From sequence record PZ347775.1: a DNA stretch of 64,000 nucleotides; one strand, written 5' to 3'. Positions within the stretch are counted from its first letter, which is position 1; every line of letters begins with the position of its first letter. Below, piece after piece: positions 44,920 through 45,375 of this stretch. The position numbers were made by a program, and so were the translations under genes. The notes under the pieces are model-generated. The model did no database searches. It was given only the letters and a program-made list of their open reading frames with translations, and had not been told where the DNA came from. The stretch comes from a phage.

Positions 44920-45375
44920 TTATTTTAAATCGTCTGCCCAATCGAGTTTAAGAGGCTCTTTGTATTCACGGTCAAGTACGACCGGAATTTGTACATCACC
45001 GCTAAATGATAAGGGCCCAACATTATAAGACAATGTTATATGCGGTGTGTAATCATCAAAATCATGTGTAGCACCTAGTGCCCGCGCATACATGTGTCGA
45101 CAGCGCAGATATTCAGAATCTAGTACAAGTACAAGAGTCGATCCATCTTGTGTTTTCCATACTTCTAAATGTCCAGAAGAAGCTACTTCAAAACTTCCGC
45201 TTGATGGAACATACGGAACATTTACTCTTGAATAACATATGGTCGAATGAATTTTTTCTCTAGGAACTGGATTAGGAACACGTAAAGAGCGCTGGAGTTC
45301 TTCCAGCGCATCAAGTGTTAATTCTGAAAACTTAGCTGCTACATAAAGACCCGTTGAAAAGTCTTTAAATTCCAT
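44920..45375 (-). CDS. 57B: 2H-phosphodiesterase gp57B (Acb1, anti-CBASS cyclic-nucleotide nuclease)
   Basis: 151 aa with two H-x-T motifs (HSTI, HITL) of the 2H phosphoesterase fold; directly upstream of 57A as in T4. Confidence 0.8.

Follow-up and report, generated by a model that had tools for sequence, protein, structure and literature searches.

An intact acb1 (gene 57B) in phage sequence PZ347775.1 encodes a protein matching the anti-CBASS protein Acb1 of T4

Introduction

The product of gene 57B of phage T4 was identified as Acb1, the cGAMP-degrading enzyme, through activity-guided fractionation (PMC9117128). T4 57B degrades cGAMP, cUA and cAAA, with Acb1 activity detectable about 15 min into T4 infection, and cGG and cA4 are not cleaved by Acb1 (PMC9117128). 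The HxT/HxT tetrad H44/T46/H113/T115 was named as the active site by Hobbs et al. (Nature 2022; PMC9117128), and the H44A/H113A double mutant of T4 Acb1 is catalytically inactive. Among the ligand contacts reported for the T4 protein, Y12, W74, F107 and W147 stack, E141 reaches the adenine N6, and residues 145-152 form a lid (PMC9117128). Hobbs et al. also solved the Acb1 of Erwinia phage FBB1, which has a compact 2H phosphoesterase fold (PMC9117128); the crystal structure is at 1.1 Å and is represented by the entries 7T26 (apo) and 7T27 (with 3'3'-cGAMP).

Gene 57B of T4 is expressed in the middle/late period. It is dispensable on K-12, and T4 acb1 is depleted from transposon libraries on a CBASS host. 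Tevenvirinae that express Acb1 are restricted by the Type I and Type II Panoptes guard systems, and escape from Panoptes occurs via nonsense or point mutations in acb1, the examples being Bas43, which carries a natural nonsense allele, and the Bas35 escapers.

Two other phage proteins, Apyc1 and Acb2, share with Acb1 the depletion of a defence second messenger. The Pycsar messengers cCMP/cUMP are hydrolysed by Apyc1, a Zn-dependent MBL-fold dimer with an HxHxDH motif that acts on cyclic mononucleotides and shows no homology to Acb1 in structure or mechanism (PMC9117128). Acb2 is a cyclic-nucleotide sponge and sequesters the signal, whereas Acb1 cleaves it. Here we describe acb1 of the phage sequence PZ347775.1, its product and its surroundings; the window referred to below is the whole stretch of DNA that was analysed, 64,000 nt in length.

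An intact acb1 reading frame

The first-pass annotation had assigned a minus-strand reading frame of the window to gene 57B/acb1, a 2H phosphodiesterase, and the homology searches bear this out. BLASTP against T4 Acb1 (57B, NP_049750.1) gave 151/151 amino acid identities, and Pfam PF23474 (Anti-CBASS protein Acb1) matched along its full length, profile positions 1-144 of 144, with 202.7 bits (E 2.6e-60; cutoff 27 bits). The best match in a PDB sequence search was 7T26/7T27 Acb1 (E 4.1e-62, residues 8-148), and no model matched in an NCBIfam search with the Acb1 protein, an outcome that says nothing either way. The product also matched PHROG 755 (E 5.2e-68), which bears the legacy name ‘RNA ligase’. 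All the features that can be tested in silico place the protein in the Acb1 family. The gene is already known, its product being the same as the protein that founded the family, and the earlier listing as an item of anti-defence inventory, not as a novelty, was appropriate for a protein identical to T4 Acb1. The features of the locus are collected in Table 1.

Table 1. Features of the acb1 locus of PZ347775.1 (positions of the 64,000-nt window)
Feature	Coordinates	Strand	Basis and remarks
MotA-box-like TGCTTCA, 11 nt, TATAAT	46356..46379	minus	pattern match just upstream of gene 1; conserved in T4
TATAAATA, T4 late-promoter-like octamer inside gene 1	45973..45980	minus	candidate; upstream of 57A-acb1
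Gene 57A (tail-fibre assembly chaperone)	45375..45617	minus	PF17594 GP57, E 2.6e-50; PHROG 1002; upstream of acb1
TAATG junction, 57A stop and acb1 start share one base	45373..45377	minus	junction sequences compared with T4
acb1 (gene 57B) CDS	44920..45375	minus	open reading frame list; ATG start, 151 codons plus stop
First catalytic HxT, H43-S44-T45 (T4 H44/T46)	45241..45249	minus	codon coordinates; aligns with HTT of the FBB1 crystal chain
Second catalytic HxT, H112-I113-T114 (T4 H113/T115)	45034..45042	minus	codon coordinates; alignment with T4 and FBB1
C-terminal lid, residues 144-151 (published 145-152), includes W146 (T4 W147)	44923..44946	minus	identical to T4; codon positions; coordinates presuppose that the published lid numbering (145-152) is T4 numbering
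Early promoter and stem-loop cassette (PeSL type)	44867..44906	minus	TTTACA, 17 nt, TACTAT with TG; 14-bp hairpin at 44867-44898; directly downstream of acb1
Internal-head-protein gene	44575-44847	minus	90 aa; PHROG 7673
Internal-head-protein gene	44199-44519	minus	106 aa; PHROG 2667
tRNA cluster	42131-43152	minus	11 genes: Arg, His, Asn, Tyr, Met(CAT), Thr, Ser, Pro, Gly, Leu, Gln

Proteins with 99% or higher identity to the present one are encoded in 499 phage records, T6 among them, and an Acb1 homologue is recognisable in 1471 phage records, with hosts that include Klebsiella, Acinetobacter, Vibrio and Aeromonas. Among the matches listed for acb1 genes that are identical or nearly so, the name is ‘RNA ligase’ or ‘hypothetical protein’ in most, ‘cyclic phosphodiesterase’ or else ‘RNA ligase/cyclic nucleotide phosphodiesterase’ in a few, and Acb1 in none. 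The acb1 match to Escherichia phage BYEP02 (OR757454.1, 89372-89901) is in two pieces, spans 530 nt against 453, and coincides with two CDSs annotated as ‘hypothetical protein’; this may be an allele disrupted in nature, of the Panoptes-escaping kind.

The prevailing label corresponds to a different reading of the protein, as a 2'-5' RNA ligase or a LigT-like RNA 2',3'-cyclic phosphodiesterase that acts on RNA ends. RefSeq T4 57B and PHROG 755 both bear the ‘RNA ligase’ label, the protein has a weak match to PF13563 (2_5_RNA_ligase2), and activity on RNA ends is chemically conceivable because the Acb1 reaction has a cyclic-phosphate intermediate (PMC9117128). However, PF13563, the sole other Pfam match, reached 13 bits (E 0.11, residues 80-122; cutoff 27 bits) against the 202.7 bits of PF23474, and the Acb1 literature covered here reports no ligase activity. 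T4 Acb1 is moreover the cGAMP-degrading enzyme by fractionation, and its pocket fits only cyclic di- and trinucleotides (PMC9117128). We consider the ligase reading very unlikely. The common ‘RNA ligase’ annotation of 57B was set aside as unsupported, with PF13563 far under its threshold.

We also considered that the gene might be inactive or in decay, the fate of acb1 in phages that shed it and thereby evade guards of the Panoptes type. Nonsense alleles of acb1 occur naturally (phage Bas43), escape mutations in the gene have arisen in the laboratory, and the two-piece match in the BYEP02 record may be a disrupted copy. The frame in PZ347775.1, however, is open from the ATG to the stop, and we found no frameshift, internal stop or truncation when it was checked over its full length. 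Compared with T4, acb1 has 10 nucleotide differences over 456 nt, all of them synonymous, leaving zero amino acid changes relative to the active T4 Acb1; 57A has 10 nucleotide differences and 2 amino acid differences. The ratio in acb1 (10/10 synonymous) indicates purifying selection, not decay. The gene is without an escape lesion of the Panoptes type, and there is practically no chance that it is a decayed copy.

Catalytic and ligand-contact residues

Residues are numbered as in the PZ347775.1 protein, and the corresponding T4 residue is obtained by adding one. Both H-x-T motifs of the 2H fold (HSTI and HITL) had been described as intact, and we located them in the open frame at H43-T45 and H112-T114. 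In the translation they are the only two H-x-T/S motifs of the 151-aa protein, where they read ‘KIHSTICY’ and ‘TPHITLSY’. Two or more HxT motifs were present in 2.2% of composition-preserving shuffles of the Acb1 protein; the motif pair by itself is therefore weak evidence, and the case for Acb1 rests on homology.

When the protein was aligned to T4 and to the characterised Acb1, the catalytic histidines lined up exactly. The residues of Hobbs et al. (Y12, H44, T46, W74, F107, H113, T115, E141 and W147 in T4 numbering) are all at equivalent positions here, such that every catalytic and ligand-contact residue is conserved. In a family alignment of 11 homologues, H43, T45, H112 and T114 were invariant down to 30% identity, and the other invariant columns include G9, Y11, S49, V82, R93, G101, Y109, P111 and E137. 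The likeness to T4 Acb1 thus takes in the catalytic tetrad, the ligand contacts, the lid, and the position of the gene between 57A and the internal-protein locus. A difference lies at the annotated N terminus: T4 57B is annotated as 152 aa with an extra N-terminal Met (ATGATG), and PZ347775.1 keeps only the second ATG. The one-Met-shorter N terminus is almost certainly irrelevant to function, because the FBB1 crystal chain aligns only from residue 8 on.

FBB1 Acb1 is 68% identical over residues 8-148. The alignment to chain 7T26_A covered 142 of its 144 residues with a single one-residue gap, and at this identity the present Acb1 is predicted to have the compact 2H phosphoesterase fold. HxT/HxT, Y11, E140 and W146 are conserved in FBB1 Acb1, which differs in having F for W73 and Y for F106 (aromatic in both proteins) and a one-residue insertion after position 78. 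Two structures of a more distant Acb1, 9Q2G and 9Q2Y (165 aa, named ‘Anti-CBASS protein Acb1’), showed marginal similarity over residues 7-118 (E 0.0044 and 0.028); the second HxT motif (HLTLAY) and the order of the elements align.

Proposed mechanism and substrate range

The best explanation of the data as a whole, in which we place very high confidence, is that the reading frame is acb1/57B of a Tequatrovirus (T4-like coliphage) and that its product is a metal-independent 2H-fold phosphodiesterase that silences the CBASS signal. We saw nothing in the sequence that speaks against this. Enzymatic activity and an anti-CBASS effect in the present phage would be expected from the experiments on the identical T4 protein. 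In the mechanism that we propose by analogy with the identical T4 protein (PMC9117128), Acb1 would capture an adenosine-containing cyclic di- or trinucleotide, with Y11, W73, F106 and W146 stacking on the bases and E140 reading the adenine N6, and the C-terminal lid would then shut over the ligand. Strain imposed on the adenosine by the enzyme would lead its 2'-OH to attack the neighbouring 3'-5' bond, with H43, T45, H112 and T114 as catalysts and the two histidines providing acid-base catalysis without a metal. A cyclic-phosphate intermediate would be converted to a linear 3'-phosphate product, which would be unable to activate the CBASS effector; the effector would stay silent and the phage cycle would be completed.

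The first-pass annotation had described the enzyme as able to degrade ‘CBASS/Pycsar-type signals’. The CBASS part of this statement is supported by the assays of the identical T4 protein. The Pycsar part claims too wide a substrate range: Acb1 is specific to CBASS and leaves Pycsar signalling unblocked, and Pycsar signals are degraded by the unrelated Apyc1 (PMC9117128). We nevertheless weighed the reading of Acb1 as a dual nuclease, directed against Pycsar as well as CBASS and active on cCMP and cUMP too. The only point in its favour is the general fact that Acb1 is a cyclic-nucleotide phosphodiesterase. Against this, lysates of T4-related phages degraded CBASS signals but not Pycsar signals, an adenosine contacted by E141 (T4 numbering) is needed for Acb1 cleavage, and wild-type Acb1 was among the treatments in the PycTIR/cUMP assay (PMC9117128). 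Direct reading of the protein found five histidines (43, 69, 94, 104 and 112) and no HxHxDH motif among them, and there was no Pfam MBL match. Activity of Acb1 on the Pycsar signals is in our judgement extremely unlikely. The anti-Pycsar reading was rejected as contradicted by the primary paper on the identical T4 protein (PMC9117128).

Gene order and expression signals around acb1

The minus-strand order is gene 3 (tail sheath stabiliser/terminator), gene 1 (dNMP kinase), 57A, 57B/acb1, two internal-head-protein genes, trna.4, trna.3, trna.2 and the tRNA cluster; from gene 3 through trna.2 this is the order of T4. Gene 1 (45617-46330) is 714 nt in PZ347775.1 compared with 726 nt in T4, that is, 12 nt shorter. 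The gene for Acb1 lies directly downstream of 57A in PZ347775.1, T4, PECP20, ValerieMcCarty04, Muldoon, phiS and Berthold, and the 57A-57B adjacency persists where Acb1 is only 43-86% identical. The 1.9-kb stretch around acb1 has matches in 677 phage records and shares 99.3% identity with Escherichia phage ECO07P2.

Comparison of the 57A/57B junctions revealed a single G-to-A difference, from GAATGATGG in T4 to GAATAATGG in PZ347775.1. By this substitution the TGA stop of 57A becomes TAA and the first 57B ATG of T4 is lost, which suggests that the second ATG of T4 57B is the true start, or at any rate one that suffices. The TAATG overlap further suggests that acb1 is translationally coupled to 57A.

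Upstream of the 57A-acb1 pair we found two promoter-like sites. The TATAAATA octamer inside gene 1 is identical in T4, together with its flanks. Across the 64,000-nt window there are 11 TATAAATA sites against 10.5 expected by chance, and the site in gene 1 is only a candidate because this count is at the chance level. The other site has a MotA-like box and lies just ahead of gene 1; judged by what is established for T4 middle promoters, it is a candidate middle promoter for a 1-57A-acb1 transcript. Both the late octamer and the MotA-like site could be compatible with the reported middle/late expression of 57B, and transcription of acb1 is probably a middle/late event driven by promoters that lie within gene 1 or upstream of it.

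Variable locus downstream of acb1

A PeSL-type cassette marks the 3' boundary of acb1 and the start of a variable internal-protein locus; its hairpin has a folding energy of -20.9 kcal/mol (z = -4.9). There are three related early-promoter/stem-loop copies on the minus strand (44878-44906, 44542-44570 and 44159-44187) compared with one copy in T4. The copies share the pattern TTTAC[AT]-17-TA[CT]TAT with a TG upstream and an overlapping stem-loop, and each small gene downstream of acb1 is preceded by one of them. The cassette next to acb1 matches the TTTACW-N17-TAYWAT consensus given for the PST/T4 phage pair (PMC4122927). In T4-type phages, PeSL promoter/stem-loop cassettes have been suggested as mediators of modular gene shuffling (PMC4122927).

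The T4 IPI gene (ipI) is absent from the locus between 44199 and 44847, and two other internal-head-protein genes are present instead. Both proteins share with T4 IPI only an N-terminal MKT(F/Y)(K/Q)EF segment, which is probably the capsid-targeting sequence. At 99% identity or above, the gene pair was found in three phage records only, with ECO07P2 and ECO07P3 among the matches listed; in other phages the pair is about 87-88% identical or less. Injected IPI* overcomes host exclusion of glucosyl-hydroxymethylcytosine phage DNA according to Bair et al. (2007), as cited in PMC4122927. The replacement of ipI bears on the anti-defence inventory of the PZ347775.1 phage.

Further downstream, the tRNA cluster has 11 genes compared with 8 in T4, the extra genes being those for His, Asn and Tyr, and the gene with the CAT anticodon sits in the slot of T4 tRNA-Ile. 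The homing endonuclease gene segB, which interrupts the T4 tRNA cluster, seems to be absent: 42131-43152 has no room for it, and none is annotated in ECO07P2. Because acb1 lies close to the phage tRNA cluster and its reaction has a cyclic-phosphate intermediate, it can be conceived that Acb1, in addition to its anti-CBASS role, acts on RNA 2',3'-cyclic-phosphate ends, for example those of tRNAs cut by host anticodon nucleases. The support found for such an activity is the shared 2H chemistry and nothing beyond it, and we give the idea a slim chance. If true, it would lend some truth to the old ‘RNA ligase/cyclic phosphodiesterase’ label.

Biological significance

The importance of acb1 in this sequence is one of bookkeeping only: the phage has an anti-CBASS nuclease that looks functional. 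In public phage records, hundreds of identical genes go by the names ‘RNA ligase’ and ‘hypothetical protein’, which are outdated. With an Acb1 identical to that of T4, the phage is predicted to resist CBASS signalling with adenosine-containing cyclic di- and trinucleotides; protection is not predicted against Pycsar, cGG-signalling CBASS or cA4-signalling type III CRISPR. The Panoptes work predicts in addition that the phage would be sensitive to guards that fire upon depletion of cA3 or other decoy nucleotides. Given such Panoptes guards, an intact acb1 would be a liability as well as an asset.
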